Below, one piece after another: positions 1 through 9,482 of a DNA stretch of 64,000 nt (positions are counted from its first letter, which is position 1; every line of letters begins with the position of its first letter). The notes beneath the pieces are model-generated. The model saw only the letters and a program-made list of their open reading frames with translations, was not told the DNA's origin and made no database searches. Source of the DNA: Candidatus Kaelpia imicola. GTDB taxonomy: Bacteria > Omnitrophota > Gorgyraeia > Kaelpiales > Kaelpiaceae. The DNA lies in NCBI GenBank assembly GCA_030765505.1, contig JAVCCL010000004.1, forward strand, positions 35,933 to 99,932, in the 5' to 3' direction. A program made the translations under genes and the position numbers.

Positions 1-35
1 TTTAGGCACCCTAGCATTACTAAAATGATGTATTT

Positions 36-1778
36 ATGACAAGCAGTAATTTTTTTAAATTAGAAGCAGCAGACTTAAAGAAAAGTTTTCTTGATTTAGA
101 TAGCATTCAAGATTTGGCTGCTCTTTTAGATGTAAGATGTAGCTTAGTAACATACTATGCTTTTATTCTGCCCGACAAAATAAAATATAAAAAGTTTACT
201 ATTCCTAAAAAATCTGGAGGTCAAAGAGAGATTAATGCTCCGATATTGCCATTAAAAGCAATTCAAAATAGATTAAATTTTATTCTACAAAATATTTACA
301 CCCCAAAGTCTTATGTGCATGGTTTTGTTAAAAAAAGAAGTATCCTTACTAATGCACGAAACCATGTATCTAAAAGTTTTGTTGGCAATATTGATTTAAA
401 AGATTTTTTCCCTTCTATTAATTTTGGTAGAGTTAGGGGGGTGTTCATAGCAGCTCCTTTTGAATTTAACAATAAAGTAGCAACAGCATTAGCACGTATT
501 GCATGTTTTGATAATTATTTACCGCAAGGAGCTCCGACTTCGCCTATAATTTCCAATCTCATTTGCGTTAAACTAGATAGTAGACTATCACAGCTTGCAA
601 GAAAATATGATTGTTTTTACACTCGATATGCAGATGATTTGACTTTCTCTACGTTGTCTAGTGTTTTCCCTGAAGCAATTTTAAAAAAGGAAGTAGTTAA
701 TGGTAGAGAAGATATTGTAATTGGAGAAGAATTAAAAAACACAGTGATAGATAATGGATTTAAAATAAATAAAAAGAAATTAAGATTAAAAGACAAAAGA
801 CAACGGCAAGAAGTTACAGGATTAACCACAAATGTTTTTCCAAATGTAAACAGGAAGTTTATTAGGCAGGTTTGGACGATGATTCATATGTGGTATAAGC
901 ATGGTTTAGCCTCTGCTGAGAAAGAGTATTTTAATCGCATAGACGATAAGTTTAGAAATCCGAAACATAAACGTCCGTCATTTAAAGAAATACTTGTTGG
1001 CAAGATAGATTTTATCGGGCAGATAAGGGGAAGGCAGGATAGGATTTATTTAAATTTATGTAGAACGTTTAGGAAGCTTTGTCCGAAGAAAAAATTCTAT
1101 GTTGATTATGATGATGAAAGTTTACCATTGATTATAACAGAGGGTAGTACCGATAGAATACATCTTAAGGCTGCCTTAAGAACGTTATATTCTAAAAGGT
1201 TGTATAGGTATCTAGATGTACGTTTTAATGAATATACACAAAGCATGGGTTCTGGTGCTTTGTCTAAATTATGTAAAGAGATGTGTAAAGTGCAACAACC
1301 AGTAAAAACAATATTTATTTTTGATAGTGACGAAGAGGAGTATATTGTATTTGCAAATGAGGGAGGTAGATGCGGTGCCCCTAGATATTGGGGCAATAAT
1401 GTGTTTTCCTTTTCATTGCCGATACCTCCCCACAGGCAAAAACAATCTTATATTAGTATAGAGCATTATTATAAAGATGATGAGATTAAGAGATTGGATA
1501 GTAACGGGTGTAGATTATTTTTTAAGAATGAATTTGACTGGAATACTAAGGAGCATCTTTCTGAGAATTTGAAAATAAAAGAAGACAAAAAGATAAAAGG
1601 AACAAAGCTTACCTCAATAATTGACCATAATATTGTTAGCAGTAGTAATGATGCTAATATGGTATTGTCAAAATCTCTGTTTGCAAAAAATGTGTTACAC
1701 AAAGAAAACAATTTTCACGATTTTAATTTCGATGAATTTACTAGAATCTTTGATTTAATTAATGAAATATTAAGATAA
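36..1778 (+). CDS. Retron-type reverse transcriptase fused to a C-terminal TOPRIM-like nuclease domain (Retron-Eco2/Ec67-like architecture)
   Basis: 580-aa ORF. RT motifs: IPKKSGGQREINAP, NIDLKDFFPSINFGRVRG block (characteristic of retron RTs as I recall them), LPQGAPTSPIISNL, catalytic YADD box (aa 198-201), retron-typical VTG motif (RQEVTGL, aa 258-264). C-terminal aa ~364-485 shows TOPRIM-type acidic motifs IITEGSTDRIHLKAAL (conserved Glu) and FIFDSDEEE (DxD) about 60 aa apart. Confidence 0.8.
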   Translation: MTSSNFFKLEAADLKKSFLDLDSIQDLAALLDVRCSLVTYYAFILPDKIKYKKFTIPKKSGGQREINAPILPLKAIQNRLNFILQNIYTPKSYVHGFVKKRSILTNARNHVSKSFVGNIDLKDFFPSINFGRVRGVFIAAPFEFNNKVATALARIACFDNYLPQGAPTSPIISNLICVKLDSRLSQLARKYDCFYTRYADDLTFSTLSSVFPEAILKKEVVNGREDIVIGEELKNTVIDNGFKINKKKLRLKDKRQRQEVTGLTTNVFPNVNRKFIRQVWTMIHMWYKHGLASAEKEYFNRIDDKFRNPKHKRPSFKEILVGKIDFIGQIRGRQDRIYLNLCRTFRKLCPKKKFYVDYDDESLPLIITEGSTDRIHLKAALRTLYSKRLYRYLDVRFNEYTQSMGSGALSKLCKEMCKVQQPVKTIFIFDSDEEEYIVFANEGGRCGAPRYWGNNVFSFSLPIPPHRQKQSYISIEHYYKDDEIKRLDSNGCRLFFKNEFDWNTKEHLSENLKIKEDKKIKGTKLTSIIDHNIVSSSNDANMVLSKSLFAKNVLHKENNFHDFNFDEFTRIFDLINEILR

Positions 1779-2051
1779 TTTAATTAAAAATCCAACTTCA
1801 ATATGCTGTTTATGGAGTAAGTGCATATATTTTTTAAAATTTTTCAATAATCTGTACTAGATTACCTTAATATTGTTGCTTGTTCCTTTATGTGCCTAGT
1901 AAAACTGTAGATTAATTTAGAAAGGTAAGTAATATATGAACGGGATATTAAACGGACAAGAATCGGTATTTTATAAATTATTTCGGTATATTTTTTTGCT
2001 AATTTCGAGAGATATTTCTAAGGAAACCACCTTGAAAAGCTTATGATTTTG

Positions 2052-2060
2052 TGGTATAAT
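2052..2060 (+). promoter_or_regulatory. Extended -10 promoter element (TGgTATAAT) in the long RT-downstream intergenic region
   Basis: Sequence tgTGGTATAAT; perfect TATAAT with TGn extension; no coding ORF follows for ~460 bp. Confidence 0.4.
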
Positions 2061-2112
2061 TTAAAAGTTAAGTAAGAGTTCCTTTAAAATGTTTATTTAG
2101 CAAAGAAAAGAT

Positions 2113-2141
2113 TTAGACGAATTAGAGATTCGTGGTATAAT
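2113..2141 (+). promoter_or_regulatory. Sigma70-like promoter (TTAGAC -17- TGgTATAAT)
   Basis: Second copy of the same gTGGTATAAT element with a -35-like TTAGAC at 17-nt spacing; transcription would run toward the 2523 ORF through a ~380-nt leader. Confidence 0.45.
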
Positions 2142-2522
2142 GTATCCGATAGTTCGAGAATCAATCTAAAAAATATTCCATCTAGCAGGGAAGATTAAAT
2201 TTCGGTATTTTATTCAATGTAGTATTGTCGATTAATTTAGATGTTAGTTTATAAAAAAGTTTTTTCCAATATATGGATGGATGGGGGAGCGTAGTATTGA
2301 TAAATTTTAATAACTTACGAGGAGGTGATGTCTATGAGAAATTGATATGGTAGTATTTTGTTGGTTGTTTGGGGTAGCGTAGGTCTAAGGCATTCTAAAG
2401 GAAGAAATTCCACCGTAGAGCTTATATAGAAATAATAATACATTTTCTATGAATTATTCTCCCTGAGCATTAGTCGAGGTTAAATAAAATGTTAACTTTA
2501 ACAATGTTTAAGGAGAATAATT

Positions 2523-3776
2523 ATGTATGCAGAAAACAGCAAAATTAACGTAGTATTAGTAGAGCTAGAAGTAAAAAAACATTTCCCCAAACTTTGGAAG
2601 GCTACCGAAGCTTCTTTAGCAACAGTTGCAACGCTCCTGTTGAAAAATAATGCTAACCCCACATCTTTAGTGTTGATAGGTCCAGTCTCATCTGGAAAAT
2701 CAACAGTACTAAGTTTTTTCCAAGGGTTAGAAAAGATTACTTACTGTACCGATTATTTTACAGCTAAAGCACTTGTTACTCATTATGCAAATAAAGATAA
2801 AAAGGAGCTAGATGATTTAGACCTACTTAAAAGAATCAAAGGTAAAAGTATGGTCGTTTCTGATTTAGGATGCATTTTTGGCTCCAAGAAAGATAATCTA
2901 AGAGAAACCCTAGGTATATTTACTAGAGCTTTAGATGGAGAAGGTCTTCTTACTGATTCTGGAGTTCATGGTAGGCGAGGGATTAAGGGGAGTTGTATGT
3001 TTGCAATGCTTGGAGGTACTACTCCATTTAAGTATAAAATATGGGATGAAATGGGGCGATTTGGCTCTAGGATGTTGTTTATTACAATGCCTTTTCTAGA
3101 GGATGAGACTAATGAAGATATCAAAAATGATTTTAAAGGTGAATTATCGTATTTAGAAAAAAGACAATTTTGCGGAGGGGAGGTCAATCAATATTTAAAA
3201 GATTTATGGGAAGAAACTGGCGGATTTCAATCTATCGATTGGGATGATAGTAGTACTTCAAGTGAGATTATGGATTTTATAATTGAATCTGCCAGATTGT
3301 TATCTAAGCTCAGAGGGTTAGTCCCGATATGGAACAGTAGCGATGGAGAATTCCAGTATCAACAACCTACAATAGAAGCTCCTCATAGAGCTATCTCTTT
3401 ATTTCTTAACTTAGCAAAGGGTAGGGCAATCATTAATGGAAGAAGGCAAATATGTATAAATGATATGGCTCTAGTGCTTGATGTGGCACTTAGTTCATGC
3501 CCGTCAGATAGAGGGAAGATATTTAAGGCACTGGTTAAATCGGAAAATGGTACTTTAAATACTCAAGAAGTATGCGAAGTACTCAATGTTAGTACTAAAA
3601 TAGCTTTAAGAGCTATGGAGAATTTTAGTATATTAAAAATAGTAGAGCATTACGATAGAAAGGAAGGAGTAGGTAGGCCTGGTTGTGTTATTCGCTTAAG
3701 AAAGGAAATAAAGGAGTGGACTGAAACTTCTAATTTTAAGCAATACTTTGCCGAAAACGAGAGTGATATAGGGTAA
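2523..3776 (+). CDS. P-loop NTPase with C-terminal winged-helix/HTH-like domain (possible replication-initiator or helicase-like ATPase of a mobile element)
   Basis: 417 aa. Walker A GPVSSGKST; candidate Walker B MVVSDLG; C-terminal segment TQEVCEVLNVSTKIALRAMENFSILKIVEH resembles a wHTH DNA-binding fold. Family assignment is not possible by eye. Confidence 0.5.
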   Translation: MYAENSKINVVLVELEVKKHFPKLWKATEASLATVATLLLKNNANPTSLVLIGPVSSGKSTVLSFFQGLEKITYCTDYFTAKALVTHYANKDKKELDDLDLLKRIKGKSMVVSDLGCIFGSKKDNLRETLGIFTRALDGEGLLTDSGVHGRRGIKGSCMFAMLGGTTPFKYKIWDEMGRFGSRMLFITMPFLEDETNEDIKNDFKGELSYLEKRQFCGGEVNQYLKDLWEETGGFQSIDWDDSSTSSEIMDFIIESARLLSKLRGLVPIWNSSDGEFQYQQPTIEAPHRAISLFLNLAKGRAIINGRRQICINDMALVLDVALSSCPSDRGKIFKALVKSENGTLNTQEVCEVLNVSTKIALRAMENFSILKIVEHYDRKEGVGRPGCVIRLRKEIKEWTETSNFKQYFAENESDIG

Positions 3777-3883
3777 TATATACAATACTTTATTATATAT
3801 ATATATAGTTATTGTTGTTATGTATCACTTAGTAAAAAGTAAAAAAACTACTAAAGAAACTACTAAAAAATGCTAGAGAAAAT

Positions 3884-3942
3884 GAACGATAAGTATGTTT
3901 TTTGTACTTATCGTTCAAGGGGGAACTATTTGGTTCCCCCTT
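3884..3942 (+). other. Two consecutive stem-loops between the NTPase and HTH genes (12-bp AT-rich stem, then 11-bp GC-rich stem aagggggaac/ggttccccctt)
   Basis: Perfect inverted repeats gaacgataagta...tacttatcgttc and aagggggaac-tattt-ggttccccctt. No U-tract follows either, so not a canonical intrinsic terminator. Confidence 0.4.
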
Positions 3943-4019
3943 CAGTATAACTAAGAACTTAATGCTTTACTCTATGCTACTATTCAGCTATAATATGTTA
4001 TAAGATGTTCTAATATACT

Positions 4020-4208
4020 ATGAATATAATAAAAGAACTTAAAGATTACCGATTAAAGAACAAAATTACTCAACAAGAATTAGCTAAGATGCTAGAAGTA
4101 TCATTTGCTACTGTAAATAGGTGGTTTAATGGACATACTAAGCCTAGTGAAATACAGGAGTATCATATAAAAGAACTACTAAAAAAGGAGGAGATAAAGG
4201 CTAAATAA
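4020..4208 (+). CDS. Small HTH DNA-binding protein, excisionase/AlpA-like (HTH_17-type)
   Basis: 62 aa; ITQQELAKMLEVSFATVNRW is a classic HTH signature. A -10-like TATAAT lies at ~3988-3993. The gene's 3' end is embedded in the first att-like repeat. Confidence 0.6.
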   Translation: MNIIKELKDYRLKNKITQQELAKMLEVSFATVNRWFNGHTKPSEIQEYHIKELLKKEEIKAK

Positions 4209-4290
4209 GAAAGCACTAGAAACAAGGTTTTTACAGGCTCATACCCGTATTGTCAGTGGTTCGAGTCCACTCACCGCCATTTCTAATCCT
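4186..4290 (+). repeat. att-like repeat copy A with tRNA-like 3' terminus (cagtggttcgagtccactcaccgcca)
   Basis: Contains a T-arm-like GGTTCGAGTCC plus an acceptor-like strand. Shares the HTH-gene 3' end plus the gaaagcactagaa...ggctcatacccgtattgtcagtgg block with copies B, C and D. Confidence 0.6.
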
Positions 4291-4451
4291 ACCTAATAAA
4301 TACATGCAATTTTAAAAAACTTATAAAGTAATTTGACAACACGAAATTATATGGTATAAATATATTGGAAATAAATTGCTCTTAGGGTGGGGAGCTTGAA
4401 ATAGATGAGATGAGAATAAAAGGTGTGAAAAGTAAAAAAGGAGGTTAGAAG

Positions 4452-5072
4452 ATGAAGAATTTAATAGTAATTGCGGCAATGGGGTTTTTAGGAATAACAA
4501 TGTTTAGTTTACCAAGTTTTGCTGTACCTTGGGAACAAGAAAAGATGCCTATAGATTGTGAGTACATACAACAAGAAAATCAACCAGCAATTGTCGGCAG
4601 TTTAGAAAAAATGGAATACGTCGACTTTAAGAAAGGGGCTGCTAAAGATATTGCATACTCATTAGAAGATGTTGATATGGATAGTTTAAATAAGGCCTTA
4701 GAAGTCATAGATAAAGCTTTATGTTCTTCATTGGTAGGTGGTGCATGTGTATTACCTATAGATGTTGAGAAGATAACTAGGCAACTAATGGCCATTGTAG
4801 GTGTATATTCAAAACAAGAAATGGATATTGAAGCTGAAACTGAATCTTTTACTAAAAGAATAGACGAATTTATCACGTTTAAATATCCTGATATACAAGA
4901 TTTTGCAATCGATGGCTACGTTCTGGGTATCCTTTTGAATATTTATAGTTGTGATTTAAGAAATATTTCATTTGAATGGCATGACTATAACGAAAGAGCT
5001 CTTAATGATTTAAGCAGAACTCCATTTGAATGGCATAACTATAACGAAAGAGCTTCTGATGAAGACAATTAA
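4452..5072 (+). CDS. Secreted hypothetical protein with C-terminal tandem repeat
   Basis: 206 aa; N-terminal signal peptide (MKNLIVIAAMGFLGITMFSLPSFA). A 33-bp DNA direct repeat (4969-5060) encodes FEWH(D/N)YNERA twice. Confidence 0.55.
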   Translation: MKNLIVIAAMGFLGITMFSLPSFAVPWEQEKMPIDCEYIQQENQPAIVGSLEKMEYVDFKKGAAKDIAYSLEDVDMDSLNKALEVIDKALCSSLVGGACVLPIDVEKITRQLMAIVGVYSKQEMDIEAETESFTKRIDEFITFKYPDIQDFAIDGYVLGILLNIYSCDLRNISFEWHDYNERALNDLSRTPFEWHNYNERASDEDN

Positions 5073-5095
5073 TCTTTGATTACGATCTAGATTAG

Positions 5096-5130
5096 AAAGC
5101 CCGTCATTAATTTGACGGGCTTTTCTTTTT
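5096..5130 (+). terminator. Rho-independent terminator
   Basis: aaagcccgtca-ttaatt-tgacgggcttt followed by ttttcttttt. Confidence 0.8.
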
Positions 5131-5185
5131 GTATATTCCTATTTAATTCCGTAGTAAAATAATACTATAAATACTAACCGCTTAA

Positions 5186-5360
5186 CCCCAAAAGGAGGCG
5201 ATGGAGGCTAAGCAGGGAAGTACTAGTAGTCAGTAGGGTCAAAACGTTAGTTTTCTGGCGTTAGCCGTGGCTCATACCCGTATTGTCAGTGGTTTAGTGG
5301 AGCATCCCGAGATAAAATATCTATAGTTGAATTTCAACGGGGCGAGTCCATCCACCGCCA
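5186..5360 (+). repeat. att-like repeat copy B (long form) with tRNA-like 3' end split by a 48-nt segment carrying a 13-bp palindrome
   Basis: ccaaaaggaggcgatggaggctaag...ttagccgtggctcatacccgtattgtcagtggtt[48 nt]cgagtccatccaccgcca; ~80% identical to copy D over ~170 nt. Confidence 0.6.
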
Positions 5361-5475
5361 AAGTCTCTTCTTTTGATTGGCTTGTTTTTTCTTTTGCAAT
5401 AGAATATTTTTGGATTAAAATATAATACAAAAGATAAAATTTGTTATTTTAACACTGTTTATTTCTGCCTGTATC

Positions 5476-5706
5476 TTGCCTGTTAATATTTTATATTCTC
5501 AAGAATATGGTGGTCTCACGGATTGGGAGTGGCAGGTGGTTAATGAGCTTGAGGATAGATTAGATGCTTTGGGGGATTGGCCAGATTGGGAAGATACAGA
5601 CAGAGTGGTTATGGAAGTAGCAAATAAGTATAGGCTTACTAAAGATGAACTGTATGATCTTGATGAAATAGCATTTTATTTACGGATATATTTGGGGGAT
5701 TTTTAA
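5476..5706 (+). CDS. Small acidic Trp-rich hypothetical protein (TTG start)
   Basis: 76-aa ORF, only non-ATG start in frame; very acidic (DWEWQVVNELEDRLDALGDWPDWEDTD). Coding status uncertain. Confidence 0.3.
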   Translation: MPVNILYSQEYGGLTDWEWQVVNELEDRLDALGDWPDWEDTDRVVMEVANKYRLTKDELYDLDEIAFYLRIYLGDF

Positions 5707-5729
5707 AATAAAAGTTGATTTGTAATTTA

Positions 5730-5795
5730 GGTGGTTTAATGGACATACTAAACCTAGCGAGATACAAGAGTATTATATAAAAGAACTACTAAAAA
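5730..5795 (+). pseudogene. Fragment of a second excisionase-like HTH gene (3' end only)
   Basis: ~90% identical to 4120-4190 (ggtggtttaatggacatactaa...aaagaactactaaaaa); no 5' part or start codon. Confidence 0.6.
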
Positions 5796-6017
5796 CCCCA
5801 AAAGGAGGAGATAAGGGCTAAATAAGAAAGCACTAGAAGTAAAGTTTTCTGGCATTAGCCGTGGCTCATACTTGTAATATTGGTGGTTCAAATCTACTCA
5901 TTGCTATATCTACATTTTACCGTGGTTAATTTATGTTAAATCGGTAGATTAGCGAAGCATCTCGAATGAAAAGCATCGTAGAGTAACTTCATTTGGGGCA
6001 AATTTACTTCCCGGCAT
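5796..6017 (+). repeat. att-like repeat copy C (degenerate)
   Basis: ccaaaaggaggagataagggctaaataagaaagcactagaag...ttagccgtggctcatacttg...tggtggttcaaatctactcattgc, plus a degenerate version of the 48-nt segment (tagcgaagcatctcgaatg...ggggcaaatttacttcccggca). Confidence 0.5.
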
Positions 6018-6191
6018 TATAACTTCAGCTGATAATCGATAATAAGCAGTGAAAATTTTATACCTCGGCAAAAATTCTATCCCAACTACGAAGTGGTTTT
6101 TTGTTTTTAGCTTATAGCCAATAGTCAAAAATATCCTGCCGTAATTTGTAAAGCACTTAAATATAAGTTATATTTATTATGAGAGGTAAGA

Positions 6192-7079
6192 ATGAAAGAT
6201 TATAAATTTAAGGTTTTTGGATTAATCTATTTAGCATTAATGAGTTGTATTTTGTTTTGCACTGACTCTGCTTATGGAAGGAGAGTTAAAGAGAGTGTTA
6301 TACAAAGAAATTTCAGTTTGATCGAAGACAGATTCAGTGAAAATATCGCTAATAAATTGTTAAACCTCAAGTTAAATGGGAGGGAGATAGGTAGAGAAGT
6401 ATTGGCAAGAGGAACTTTAATAGGAGGCCTTGAACCCGTATTAATACTTAGAGCTGTATTGGAAGATAATTTTGAAAATACTCTATTTGGTCAAGAACCA
6501 AATTGGGATGAAATTGCCAGCGAAATAAGCTTTTTTTTCGATATGGATATTGAGCAGTCCAAAAGACAATGGATTAATAAAGAAGATGTAATTGGTTGTA
6601 TGGGATATGTGTATCCCAATATATCCAAAGGAACAATAGTAAGCGTAAAGAGTATTTTTAATTATAACTATACTCACTCTGTTGCAGAATGTTTAGCAAT
6701 AAGTTTATATGATAAGGATTCAGGAATAATTGCACTAGTACATTTAAAACCCAATTTGTTTTTTTCAGAACAAGAAAAAGTTAAACTCTGGATGGAAGTA
6801 ATCAATGATACTCTATATAGGTTAAAAGACAGAGGTGCTGATTTAGGAAATTTGGAGGCAAGAATTATTGGGGGGAGCGTATATATTCTTGAAACCGGCA
6901 CATATATTTTTAAAACTGAAGAAGAAAAGATTGCTGCTGTGAAGAGAATTCTTAAAGTTTATCAAGTACTTATAAGTTTAAATATCCCGATTGTTGAAAG
7001 AGATATCTTGAGAACAGAGCGTTCTAATGATTTAATAGTCTCTGCCTATGACGGGTTATTCTATAATGTGCGCCCATAG
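6192..7079 (+). CDS. Hypothetical exported/membrane protein with C-terminal CheD-like (chemoreceptor glutamine deamidase-like) domain
   Basis: 295 aa; N-terminal hydrophobic segment. ECLAISLYDKDSGIIALVHLKPN and RLKDRGADLGNLEARIIGGS resemble the CheD motifs around the catalytic Cys and His and the GG loop, as recalled from B. subtilis CheD. Confidence 0.4.
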   Translation: MKDYKFKVFGLIYLALMSCILFCTDSAYGRRVKESVIQRNFSLIEDRFSENIANKLLNLKLNGREIGREVLARGTLIGGLEPVLILRAVLEDNFENTLFGQEPNWDEIASEISFFFDMDIEQSKRQWINKEDVIGCMGYVYPNISKGTIVSVKSIFNYNYTHSVAECLAISLYDKDSGIIALVHLKPNLFFSEQEKVKLWMEVINDTLYRLKDRGADLGNLEARIIGGSVYILETGTYIFKTEEEKIAAVKRILKVYQVLISLNIPIVERDILRTERSNDLIVSAYDGLFYNVRP

Positions 7080-7277
7080 TATAGGGAGAGTTTGGTAATT
7101 AGTTTAATTTTGCAAAATAACAAAGAAATATAGACAAAATTAGCAAGGAAAGAACAGATAGTTAATAATTTACCAAATCCGGTGGGCTTTTCTTTTTATA
7201 TCTTTCCACCTCATTTCATAGTAAAATAATAGCAATTGCGGATGTTTTCTCCCGAATTTTAATCCAAGGATTAAATA

Positions 7278-7745
7278 ATGCAAATAGAGCAAGTTGTAAT
7301 TGATGATTTGTCAGAGATTTTAAGCTTACAGAAGTTAGCATTTCAAAATGAAGCTGAAATCTATTCTGACTGTAAAATTCCGCCTTTAACCCAAAGCTTG
7401 GAAGATATAAAAGAAGAATTTCAACAGAAAGTTTTTTTAAAAGCTGCGGTAAATAGTGAAATAATCGGTTCTGTGAGAGCATTTAAAGAAAAGAGGTCTT
7501 GTTATATTGGAAAACTTATAGTACACCCTGATTTTCAGAATCAGGGTGTCGGTACAAGGTTAATACAGGAAGTAGAGGGGATCTTTAGAGATGCTGAATA
7601 TTTTGTATTATGGACAGGACATAAAAGTGAAAAAAGTATTTGTTTTTATCAGAAGTTGGGCTATAAAGCAGTTAAGGCTACATTCGATATTAGAGATAAT
7701 AAATTTTTACGCTTAGAAAAAAGAAAATATAGAGTAACTGAGTAG
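7278..7745 (+). CDS. GNAT family N-acetyltransferase
   Basis: 155 aa; acetyl-CoA binding motif A VHPDFQNQGVGTRLI. Confidence 0.8.
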   Translation: MQIEQVVIDDLSEILSLQKLAFQNEAEIYSDCKIPPLTQSLEDIKEEFQQKVFLKAAVNSEIIGSVRAFKEKRSCYIGKLIVHPDFQNQGVGTRLIQEVEGIFRDAEYFVLWTGHKSEKSICFYQKLGYKAVKATFDIRDNKFLRLEKRKYRVTE

Positions 7746-7808
7746 GTATATATTTCTTTTATCCCGTTTCAGATGTTGTTGAAAGAAGGGAATAAGCTAC
7801 TAAAAATA

Positions 7809-7969
7809 TCCAAAAGGAGGCGATGGAAGCTAAGACAGAGAAGCATTAGTAGCCGGTTTTCTGATGATAGCCGTGGCTTATACCTATAGTGCCGGTAGTT
7901 TAGCGGAGCATCTCGAGATAAATATCTATAGTTGAATTTCAACGGGGCAAGCCTACTCACAGTCAGTAG
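7809..7969 (+). repeat. att-like repeat copy D (long form); probable right boundary of the accessory region
   Basis: ccaaaaggaggcgatggaagctaag...atagccgtggcttatacc...tttagcggagcatctcgagataaatatctatagttgaatttcaacggggcaagcctactcacagtcag; homologous to copy B including the 13-bp palindrome. Confidence 0.6.
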
Positions 7970-8020
7970 TTTTGGAGTTTTTTTATTGATTCTTTTTAAA
8001 TAAGGTGTAACTTAAATACT

Positions 8021-8368
8021 ATGATTGAGCGTCGTAAATATCCAAGATTAGATAATTTTCTTAGTGTTAATTATAAGGTATTAGGTATAGACGATTCTCT
8101 GGTTAATACCGTATGTAAGAATATCAGCGCAGGAGGGATATGTTTTCCTGTTAAAGAAGATATACAACAGGAGACTCTATTGGAAATAGATATCTATATC
8201 AGAGAGATAAAGAAAGGTATCCAAGCTAAAGGCAGGGTCGTCTGGTTAAAAAGAAGAGAGGATAAATGTTATCCTTATATTGTAGGTGTTGAATTTACCG
8301 AGATTGAAGATGGTGAGCGTGATTTTATTCTTCATTATGTTTGGGAAAAATTGAGGGAAAAAGAATAA
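8021..8368 (+). CDS. PilZ domain protein (c-di-GMP binding)
   Basis: RRKYPR (RxxxR) and NISAGG (D/NxSxxG) motifs. Confidence 0.75.
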   Translation: MIERRKYPRLDNFLSVNYKVLGIDDSLVNTVCKNISAGGICFPVKEDIQQETLLEIDIYIREIKKGIQAKGRVVWLKRREDKCYPYIVGVEFTEIEDGERDFILHYVWEKLREKE

Positions 8369-8492: not shown

Positions 8493-9482
8493 ATGAAGTT
8501 AAAAAATGAGGTTAGAGATACTATATCTGAATATTTTCTCATAAAGAGAGGAGAGAATATCTTGCTATCAGTATCGGGTGGACCCGATTCTGTTGCTATG
8601 GTTTATATCCTAAATGAGTTAAGATCTGAAATAGGATTTAATATGGCTCTGGGTTATTTTCATCATGGGATAAGGAAAGATTCTGATAAAGAACAGAAAT
8701 ACGTAGAAGGACTTGCTGCTGTTTTTAAAATTGATTTTTATACTAAAAGATCTGATATACCTCTTATTTCAAAAAAAGAGAAGAGTTCTCTTGAGGATAC
8801 TGCAAGAAGAGAGAGATATAAGTTTTTAATATCAACAGCTAAAAGGAGAGAGTTTGATAAGATAGCCGTTGCTCATAATAGCGATGATCAGGCTGAGACT
8901 ATATTGCAAAGATTGATGCGGGGCTCAGGGTTAAGAGGTTTTAGAGGTATCTCTTTCAAGATGGATATGGATGGAGTAGAGATAGTAAGACCGTTACTTT
9001 CCTCTTCAAGGAAAGAGATAGAGAGATATTTAGAGAAGAATAAGATATCTCCATGCATAGATAAGAGTAATTTTGATACTAAATTTAATCGTAATAAGGT
9101 TAGACATGAGTTGATACCTTATATAGAAAAGGAATTTAATCCAAACATCAAAGAGCTTCTCTGTAAAACAGCCTCCAACATGTCGCAGCTGCATAGTTTT
9201 ATAGAGGCTGAAGTTGAAGATGTTTTTAAAAGGTGTGTGAAAAAGGAATCTTCTTATGTTAAGATAAAGACCGATAGATTAAAAAGATTCCATTCTTATA
9301 TTATGGCGGAGCTTGTGAGAAAAGCAGTTGAGGTGGTTAAAGGAGATCTAAAGAGGTTTGAATATTCTCACTGGAAAGAGATAGAGTCATTAATTTATGA
9401 ACGTCCGGATAATTCCGTAGTAGATTTACCTGGAGGGATAAAGGTTAGGAAAGCGAAATCTTGGATAACTATAGGGAGGTAG
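8493..9482 (+). CDS. tilS: tRNA(Ile)-lysidine synthetase
   Basis: PP-loop SVSGGPDSVAM; ~330 aa; conserved position upstream of ftsH. Confidence 0.85.
   Translation: MKLKNEVRDTISEYFLIKRGENILLSVSGGPDSVAMVYILNELRSEIGFNMALGYFHHGIRKDSDKEQKYVEGLAAVFKIDFYTKRSDIPLISKKEKSSLEDTARRERYKFLISTAKRREFDKIAVAHNSDDQAETILQRLMRGSGLRGFRGISFKMDMDGVEIVRPLLSSSRKEIERYLEKNKISPCIDKSNFDTKFNRNKVRHELIPYIEKEFNPNIKELLCKTASNMSQLHSFIEAEVEDVFKRCVKKESSYVKIKTDRLKRFHSYIMAELVRKAVEVVKGDLKRFEYSHWKEIESLIYERPDNSVVDLPGGIKVRKAKSWITIGR

Follow-up and report, generated by a model that had tools for sequence, protein, structure and literature searches.

What has placed a row of decayed, tRNA-like repeats, with small unrelated genes between them, directly before the PilZ and tilS genes of Candidatus Kaelpia imicola (Omnitrophota)? 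The repeats lie near one end of a 64,000-nt stretch of contig JAVCCL010000004.1 (positions 35,933 to 99,932 of the forward strand), which we call the window and number from its first letter. A first-pass annotation of the window had described four copies of an attachment-site-like (att-like) repeat and proposed that related islands had integrated serially into the 3′ end of a tRNA or transfer-messenger RNA (tmRNA) gene located upstream, and had then decayed. The answer we reach is that positions 1-7965 very likely consist of elements that integrated one after another at a single tRNA-Met(CAT) gene, some of them now reduced to remnants, with the tRNA itself lying just upstream of the window.

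A repeat finder applied to the 64-kb window confines the repeat family to positions 4183-7965 and resolves it into a shared 5′ block of 49 nt with four copies (at 4183, 5190, 5800 and 7812; identity 61-92%), a middle block of 67 nt with three (5250, 5844 and 7856) and a tRNA-like block of 50 nt, also with three (4236, 5269 and 5863). The 16-nt core of the middle block, TAGCCGTGGCTYATAC, has three exact matches in the 64 kb, all of them inside the repeat region, and five matches when up to three mismatches are allowed, against 0.57 expected. The four copies (A-D) of the first description were thus recovered, with their limits refined: copy A spans 4183-4279, copy D extends to 7965, and copy C is split by multiple alignment and direct reading into two units, C1 (5796-5906) and C2 (5919-6016). 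Since C1 abuts C2, we take them to be two att copies fused by deletion. For comparison we use the array of Candidatus Saelkia tenebricola (copies S1-S3) and contigs from further genomes, given by label (L002 to L025). The units of the array, together with the helix-turn-helix (HTH) gene that reads into its first copy and the flank at which it ends, are:

4020-4208, + strand: XRE-family HTH gene of 62 aa (Pfam HTH_3, E = 8.8e-12), the last gene of the proximal island, whose non-conserved tail reads into the att arm; the protein matches one of Ca. Kaelpia imicola at 100% identity
4183-4235, + strand: copy A, element-side (P) arm, consisting of the motif AAAAGGAGGAGATAAAGGCTAA and a spacer; 100% identical to two arms of L010
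4236-4279, + strand: copy A, 3′ part of tRNA-Met(CAT) after displacement, reaching from the anticodon loop as far as the discriminator base; 44 of 44 positions identical to the intact Saelkia tRNA
5186-5268, + strand: copy B, P arm in its long form; 90% identical to Saelkia S3 over copy positions 3-123
5269-5360, + strand: copy B, tRNA-Met 3′ part whose T-loop is interrupted between T55 and C56 by 48 extra nt (5295-5342), from direct reading; the alignment gives the insert as a single block
5728-5795, + strand: 68-nt 3′ fragment of an HTH gene, 93% identical to 4118-4185 by the repeat finder; the rest of its island is deleted
5796-5906, + strand: copy C1, a P arm of the A type and a decayed tRNA-Met 3′ part (5863-5906), from repeat finder and alignment
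5919-6016, + strand: copy C2, a decayed, insert-bearing 3′ domain nearly without P arm, abutting C1, from direct reading and from a repeat-finder match of 5942-5965 to 7893-7916 in copy D (92%)
7809-7965, + strand: copy D, the outermost copy, with a P arm (7809-7874) and a tRNA-Met 3′ part carrying a 47-nt T-loop insert (7901-7947); 88% identical to copy B over 82 nt
7966-8368, + strand: resumed core genome, with the native flank downstream of the tRNA and then PilZ, from the empty site on L002; 75% identity over 623 nt from 7979

The tRNA-like ends of the copies are the 3′ 44 nt of tRNA-Met(CAT). A degenerate pattern spanning all four copies, scanned against one genome per species, matched tRNA-Met(CAT) genes in several Omnitrophota-like genomes. 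The intact tRNA-Met gene of Saelkia reads GGCGGTGTAGCTCAGTTGGTTAGAGCATACGGCTCATACCCGTATTGTCAGTGGTTCGAGTCCACTCACCGCCA, and window 4236-4279 is identical to its last 44 nt (L005 2688-2645). The 3′ part of copy A is also identical at 42 of 42 positions to the tRNA-Met of L002, L003 and L011, and the 83 nt 3′ of copy A are homologous to the flank that follows the Saelkia tRNA. This identity, taken with the homologous flank, establishes at the level of sequence that copy A contains the 3′ part of a tRNA, which has been displaced and now adjoins foreign DNA on its left side. Of the two kinds of target first considered, the tRNA stands on this exact match but the tmRNA does not: the acceptor 3′ strand CACCGCC comes without the G3:U70 pair, and neither ARAGORN nor Rfam reports a tmRNA. 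The target, here called tRNA-Met, may be either elongator Met or Ile2. The copies lack a complete cloverleaf, and ARAGORN finds no tRNA in positions 1-8000. The Rfam tRNA model reaches at most 16.8 bits (4190-4279), where its gathering score is 29, and the only Rfam families above gathering score in the whole window are three tRNAs, none in the repeat region. Paired changes distinguish the T-stems of the displaced halves from one another (AGTGG/CCACT, ACTGG/CCAGT, GCTGG/CCAGC and GGTAG/CTACT), as would be expected if each half had once served in a working tRNA from a different element. As a side observation, tilS (window 8493-9482), which modifies the CAT-anticodon tRNA-Ile2, is found two genes 3′ of this CAT-anticodon tRNA in several genomes.

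Relatives carry the same locus in empty, single-island and multi-module states. The empty site is found on L002, in the order pilT, DUF2344, tRNA-Met (2208-2283), 54 nt, PilZ (2338) and tilS. Here PilZ and tilS directly follow the tRNA, as the first-pass annotation had anticipated for related genomes lacking the region, and the 54-nt flank recurs after copy D (from window 7966 on) and after the fourth copy of L010. The core genome, first thought to resume at about 7970, therefore does so at 7966. The closest relative of the window HTH protein (94% identical) occurs on contigs L010 and L011. On L011, a DUF2344 gene is followed by an intact + strand tRNA-Met (915-990), directly thereafter by a 300-aa tyrosine integrase (1136-2038), and then by cargo, a D5-type primase and the HTH gene. 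The attR that follows the HTH gene on L010 is identical to window copy A at 97 of 97 positions, so that the tRNA and tyrosine integrase expected upstream of the window are both seen, in relatives, with an island that ends in the same HTH gene and the same attR. Beyond this attR, L010 continues with an S26 peptidase open reading frame (ORF), a second perfect 97-nt copy, a gene for a secreted protein, a third copy, DUF5752 and glycosyltransferase genes, a fourth copy, and PilZ. The related strain L013 has an island end that is 98.7% identical over 1149 nt, with one attR and then PilZ directly; the three modules of L010 are absent from it. In Saelkia, the tRNA lacks an adjacent integrase and is followed by modules bounded by the three copies S1-S3, before tilS.

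An intact tRNA at the attL end is present in L011 and L024. A DUF2344 gene directly precedes tRNA-Met in four relatives; in Ca. Kaelpia imicola, its ortholog shares a 105,192-bp contig with the window HTH gene. Taken together, the empty, single-island and multi-module states indicate that window 1-7965 is inserted DNA. As copy number and cargo differ among the window, Saelkia, L010 and L013, the array is not a fixed feature, and the proposed succession of serial site-specific integration and decay is supported by the states seen in relatives. Separately, L024 (17681-17850) has a second, 13-nt copy of the tRNA 3′ end (CCACTCGCCGCCA) located 107 nt 3′ of its attR, which suggests that the tRNA part has received another small insertion where it ends.

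Comparisons of several relatives locate the junction between tRNA and element. L013 and the first copy of L010 agree fully as far as the end of GGCTCATACCCGTA and diverge over the remainder of the tRNA part. In L022 (9840-9900) and L023 (1-40), an integrase of the same clade as that of L011 (67% identical) has as its neighbour a tRNA-Met 5′ half cut off directly after CTCATAC, and in L024 the identity between tRNA and attR begins at CTCATAC. The junction thus lies in or at the anticodon loop, which makes the displaced piece 44 nt long. In L022 the island splits the tRNA gene, and no 3′ half is supplied within 10 kb. The anticodon loop is flanked by the inverted stem arms ATACGG and CCGTAT, an arrangement that would suit a simple Xer-type recombinase.

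An integrase is encoded beside the att site in L011, L024, L025 and L022. For the L011 protein, the XerD and XerC models score highest, yet below their cutoffs, and the integron-integrase model gives 62 bits against a cutoff of 265. The protein is a two-domain Xer-type enzyme in which no separate arm-binding domain was detected. About 90 relatives form a clade at 57-74% identity, mostly of about 300 aa, whose named members all come from Omnitrophota; beyond this clade, identity falls to 38% or less, and there proteins named XerD appear. Three further members of the clade adjoin tRNA-Met. In the literature we found no description of this integrase clade, or of this hotspot, in Omnitrophota.

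The stack may have been built as follows. A compact XerD-like tyrosine integrase would recombine the anticodon stem-loop of the tRNA with a site on the element, the attB core being the 7-nt loop CTCATAC between its inverted stem arms, and attP combining the arm motif with this loop and a duplicate of the last 35 nt of the tRNA. Integration would rebuild the tRNA from the copy brought by the element, and the former 3′ part would come to lie at the distal end of the element as attR. Repeated events would leave a row of units, each an arm plus a 3′ part, with cargo between them. Copy A would then be the attR of the proximal island, which carries the retron reverse transcriptase (RT)-Toprim gene, a P-loop protein and the XRE HTH gene, and copies B, C1 and D would bound small modules without integrase. 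Later deletions would have fused neighbouring copies, as at C1/C2 and in the insert of B, D and C2, and cut one island down to the 68-nt HTH fragment. We infer the acting integrase from the relatives, and some mobility may remain.

Stacked att scars at tRNA-Met are an instance of a well-known type of genome hotspot. The hotspot defined here, between tRNA-Met and PilZ/tilS, is one of gene gain and loss in an uncultured, small-celled phylum, with all intermediate states coming from metagenomes, and it is tied to a distinct clade of compact Xer-like integrases. Islands with integrases of this clade carry cargo of the defence type or candidates for it: TIR-domain, KAP NTPase and DUF4011 helicase genes in relatives, and in the present case the retron RT-Toprim. 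In annotation, the four repeats should not be labelled as RNA genes, nor the HTH gene as an excisionase.

The insert in the T-loop requires an explanation of its own. In B, D, C2 and three Saelkia copies, 35-60 extra nt are found exactly between T55 and C56; the window forms have 47-60 nt. The start of the insert, TAGYGGAGCATCYC, is conserved, and its middle is formed by variable hairpins. The Saelkia insert aligns to tRNA positions 29-57, that is, to a degenerate anticodon arm and one strand of the T-stem (p = 0.005-0.03 against shuffles). We suggest, with low confidence, that the insert is a decayed second att core that remained after a deletion had fused neighbouring copies, a process for which the C1-C2 junction provides a visible second case, and, just as tentatively, that the composite, insert-bearing form then spread between copies. 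A metagenome scan for this form gave a single match, in apparent coding sequence, which looks like chance, and a viral collection gave no match to the two DNA patterns and two proteins scanned. Copy B of the window resembles Saelkia S2 at its start and S3 afterwards, with the breakpoint in the arm and not at the core. This hybrid copy and the differing outermost halves discussed below indicate that homologous exchange acts on the array.

Several observations weigh against stacked integration as the full account of the locus. The ancestral tRNA 3′ part would be expected in the outermost copy, which in the window is copy D, next to the native tRNA flank. This copy is not the same in L010, L013 and the window, however, and in the window it has a T-loop insert, so that gene conversion or homologous recombination among copies must also be at work. 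The inserts of the window copies (B, D and C2), when compared to the tRNA, are not significant against shuffles. The L011 integrase has, among its 120 best relatives, none on a contig of 105,192 bp, so that the proximal island may lack an integrase of that clade, having perhaps lost it or using another. For this island, the intact tRNA-Met and the integrase would lie upstream, outside the sequence read, and no excised form was observed.

The 5′ block of the copies had been interpreted as the C-terminal coding end of an excisionase-like HTH gene, to which each copy would be fused. The window protein belongs to the XRE/HTH_3 type instead; HTH_17 (excisionase/AlpA/MerR-like) is not among its family matches, and related islands carry a separate HTH_17 protein. 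Homologs of the window protein often precede restriction-modification methylase genes. The described fusion is found in copy A, where the gene is intact, and in C1, which is preceded by the 68-nt fragment, first noted at about 90% identity and measured at 93%; B and D, however, share just the motif that overlaps the last eight HTH codons in copy A. In homologs the conserved HTH domain ends with ...LLKK and the tails vary, and L024 has a related motif, AAAGGAGGTGAAAGGCTAA, about 60 nt upstream of the attR core, after an unrelated ORF and outside any HTH gene. The block is therefore not conserved HTH coding sequence but a DNA-level arm motif into which the ORF merely reads; it may serve, for example, as an accessory binding site. 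Two other candidates for the 5′ part were rejected. A mini-ORF (MEAK, then stop) behind the AAGGAGG of the block has a gap of just 2 nt between GGAGG and ATG, and its frame is not kept among the copies. The P arm as a degenerate tRNA 5′ half gave no significant local alignment (best p = 0.054), and unrelated tRNAs score equally.

The cargo of the proximal island and of the three small modules that follow it consists of:

36-1778, + strand: retron-type RT fused to a Toprim domain, in the proximal island; PADLOC RT-Toprim_I-C, E = 2.8e-158, nearly full length; Pfam RVT_1, E = 2.1e-18
2523-3776, + strand: 417-aa P-loop protein, in the proximal island, with the Walker A motif GPVSSGKST
4452-5072, + strand: secreted protein with two 18-aa repeats, in module 1, from the ORF list; a terminator follows at 5095-5124
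5476-5706, + strand: 76-aa acidic protein, in module 2, from the ORF list; the same gene follows Saelkia S3
6192-7079, + strand: 295-aa protein with a weakly CheD-like C-terminal half, in module 3; NCBIfam CheD, E = 2.5e-6, 28 bits against a cutoff of 240; Pfam CheD, E = 0.019
7278-7745, + strand: GNAT acetyltransferase, in module 3; Pfam Acetyltransf_1, E = 2.1e-15

The island with the RT is the most proximal module, as proposed at first pass, with copy A as its attR. The RT has the Toprim fusion by which retrons of type I-C are recognised. The Rfam scan of the window identified no msr/msd RNA, the region upstream of the RT lying outside the window and no dedicated test having been made. The 417-aa P-loop protein matches no Pfam or NCBIfam family above threshold, and it is not a homolog of the D5-type primase that occupies the same position in L010. 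Upstream of these unrelated replication-type genes, the window (2084-2251) and L010 (6838-7006) share 170 nt of non-coding sequence at 79% identity. This sequence probably belongs to the backbone of the island, as an origin or regulatory region, and is probably not a retron RNA, because L010 has no RT.

The modules at 4280-5268, 5361-5862 and 6017-7874 are bounded by att copies and contain cargo ORFs only, without integrase or transfer genes, which is how cis-mobilizable elements (CIMEs) are recognised. Of the small genes that had been noted between the copies, the secreted repeat protein, the acidic protein and the GNAT are confirmed by the ORF list and Pfam; the CheD-like protein keeps a weak family match but falls far under the curated cutoff. 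Module 1 is 88% identical over 1050 nt to the module between Saelkia S1 and S2. Its secreted protein ends in an 18-aa repeat (..FEWH.YNERA..), encoded by two tandem 54-nt repeats (4952-5059) that are 83% identical to each other, and the Saelkia ortholog shows the same. A 48-nt block, formed by the tail of the terminator and ..GTAGTAAAATAATA, occurs at 5117-5164, directly before copy B, and again, 81% identical, at 7184-7231. The GNAT gene is located between this second block and copy D, as if it had been inserted into an arm of the B type.

Among other explanations of the array, the one that survives best, while still unlikely, regards the small modules as discrete cassettes without integrase, each a circle made up of cargo and a site of about 100 nt, which were captured singly at tRNA-Met by a XerD-like integrase acting in trans. 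The 872 nt that separate two perfect 97-nt copies in L010 are taken up by an S26 peptidase ORF without a promoter, whose start codon comes 20 nt after the first copy and whose stop codon comes 9 nt before the second. The modules measure 0.5-2 kb and hold one or two intact genes and no remains of an integrase, several arms begin at the same point, CCCCAAAAGGAGG, and both the presence of three modules in L010 and none in L013 and the two-domain Xer-type build of the integrase fit such a system. As in integron arrays, units of one gene, some of them promoterless, stand in a row, each ending in a recombination site, near a Xer-related recombinase. Here, however, the sites are derived from a tRNA and are not attC hairpins, their folding is no better than that of shuffles, the integrase fails the integron-integrase model at 62 bits, it is encoded inside a mobile island and not on a fixed platform, and a common promoter was not identified. 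At least one unit, the HTH fragment (5728-5795), is a deletion remnant, and copies are fused; the S2/S3 hybrid nature of copy B, with its breakpoint in the arm and off the core, points to homologous recombination; and no circular form was seen, nor was an identical cassette found at a different position in another array. In its strongest form, which is slightly less likely still, this explanation would imply an integron-like, tRNA-anchored cassette system in Omnitrophota, with sites composed of AAAGGAGGnGA..GGCTAA, the core and a working 3′ half, shuffled by the dedicated clade of 300-aa XerD-like integrases, and with double-core copies as by-products. If the modules do move on their own, this would be a cassette system of new design.

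Far less probable is a reading of the copies, especially of the long B and D type, as paralogous genes for tRNA-like small RNAs of about 170 nt, which would have promoters of their own and a 5′ block paired to the 3′ end. In the consensus fold, the GGCGATG within the 5′ block does pair with the acceptor strand at the 3′ end, and one compensatory change is seen in the third copy of L010; but of the seven pairs proposed, three are disrupted in Saelkia S3, and we estimate that such pairing is expected by chance at about this frequency. The covariation term amounts to just -0.7 kcal/mol, the covarying pairs belong mostly to the inherited T-stem, the folding energies are no better than those of shuffles (z from -1.4 to +0.9), and the minimum-energy structures differ among copies. 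Copies of the B type are kept between two genera, and a conserved AT-rich stretch lies upstream of them, but promoter-like sites are no commoner than in shuffled sequence. Neither Rfam, whose best hit is the tRNA model below its gathering score, nor ARAGORN recognises an RNA gene in the copies, which moreover vary in number and position and are missing from the empty site.

Local tandem duplication and unequal homologous recombination of one att/tRNA segment, without repeated site-specific integration, is an equally slight prospect and in its pure form is excluded by the unrelated genes between the copies: homologous exchange is evident from the hybrid copy B, the C1/C2 fusion and the strain-differing outermost halves, but the different T-stems with their paired changes point to separate origins, a complete island with integrase uses the same site, and the copies group across genomes (B with S3, and A with L010 copies 1 and 2).

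The closest described case to stacked integration at tRNA-Met is that of the tandem ssrA-specific islands of Dehalococcoides (McMurdie et al. 2011, PMC3146451). There, islands stand in a row 3′ of one small RNA gene, that of tmRNA, whose 3′ end is directly repeated at their boundaries, every repeat having a conserved motif upstream of it. The dsiB gene at the island edge overlaps attL, and where an integration module is missing, the unit is interpreted as a cis-mobilizable element added by accretion (PMC3146451). The Omnitrophota array shares the serial islands, the 3′-end repeats, the upstream motif, the integrase-less units and the edge gene that overlaps the att site. It differs in its target, which is tRNA-Met and not tmRNA, in the use of the anticodon loop instead of the T-loop, in a repeat of 44 nt against 20 bp, in a 300-aa Xer-like tyrosine integrase in place of a 540-aa serine recombinase, and in its much smaller modules (0.5-2 kb).

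Among the integrative and conjugative or mobilizable elements of streptococci, CIMEs are att-flanked modules without integrase or transfer genes that lie beside a complete element at the same site (PMC3146451). The modules described here are likewise bounded by att copies, free of integrase and transfer genes, and neighbours of a complete element at the same site; unlike the streptococcal case, no conjugation or mobilization genes were seen in any unit, and mobilization would be putative. The only sign of it, an indirect one, is that modules present in L010 are absent from L013.

With respect to the position of the crossover, tyrosine-integrase elements that target the anticodon loop of a tRNA are said to use sublocation I. 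The islands at tRNA-Met resemble these elements in that the crossover lies in a loop with a symmetric stem, the tRNA 3′ part is carried by the element, the gene is restored and the displaced part forms attR. They depart from them in their short, XerC/D-like integrase without a detected arm-binding domain, and in the L022 member, which leaves the tRNA split and unrestored within 10 kb. An att-like arrangement at a different sublocation was seen in an unrelated, GC-richer bacterium (L007 350-600), where a tRNA-Met is followed by a partial copy of itself, extending from the T-loop to the 3′ end, and by a repeat of the flank.

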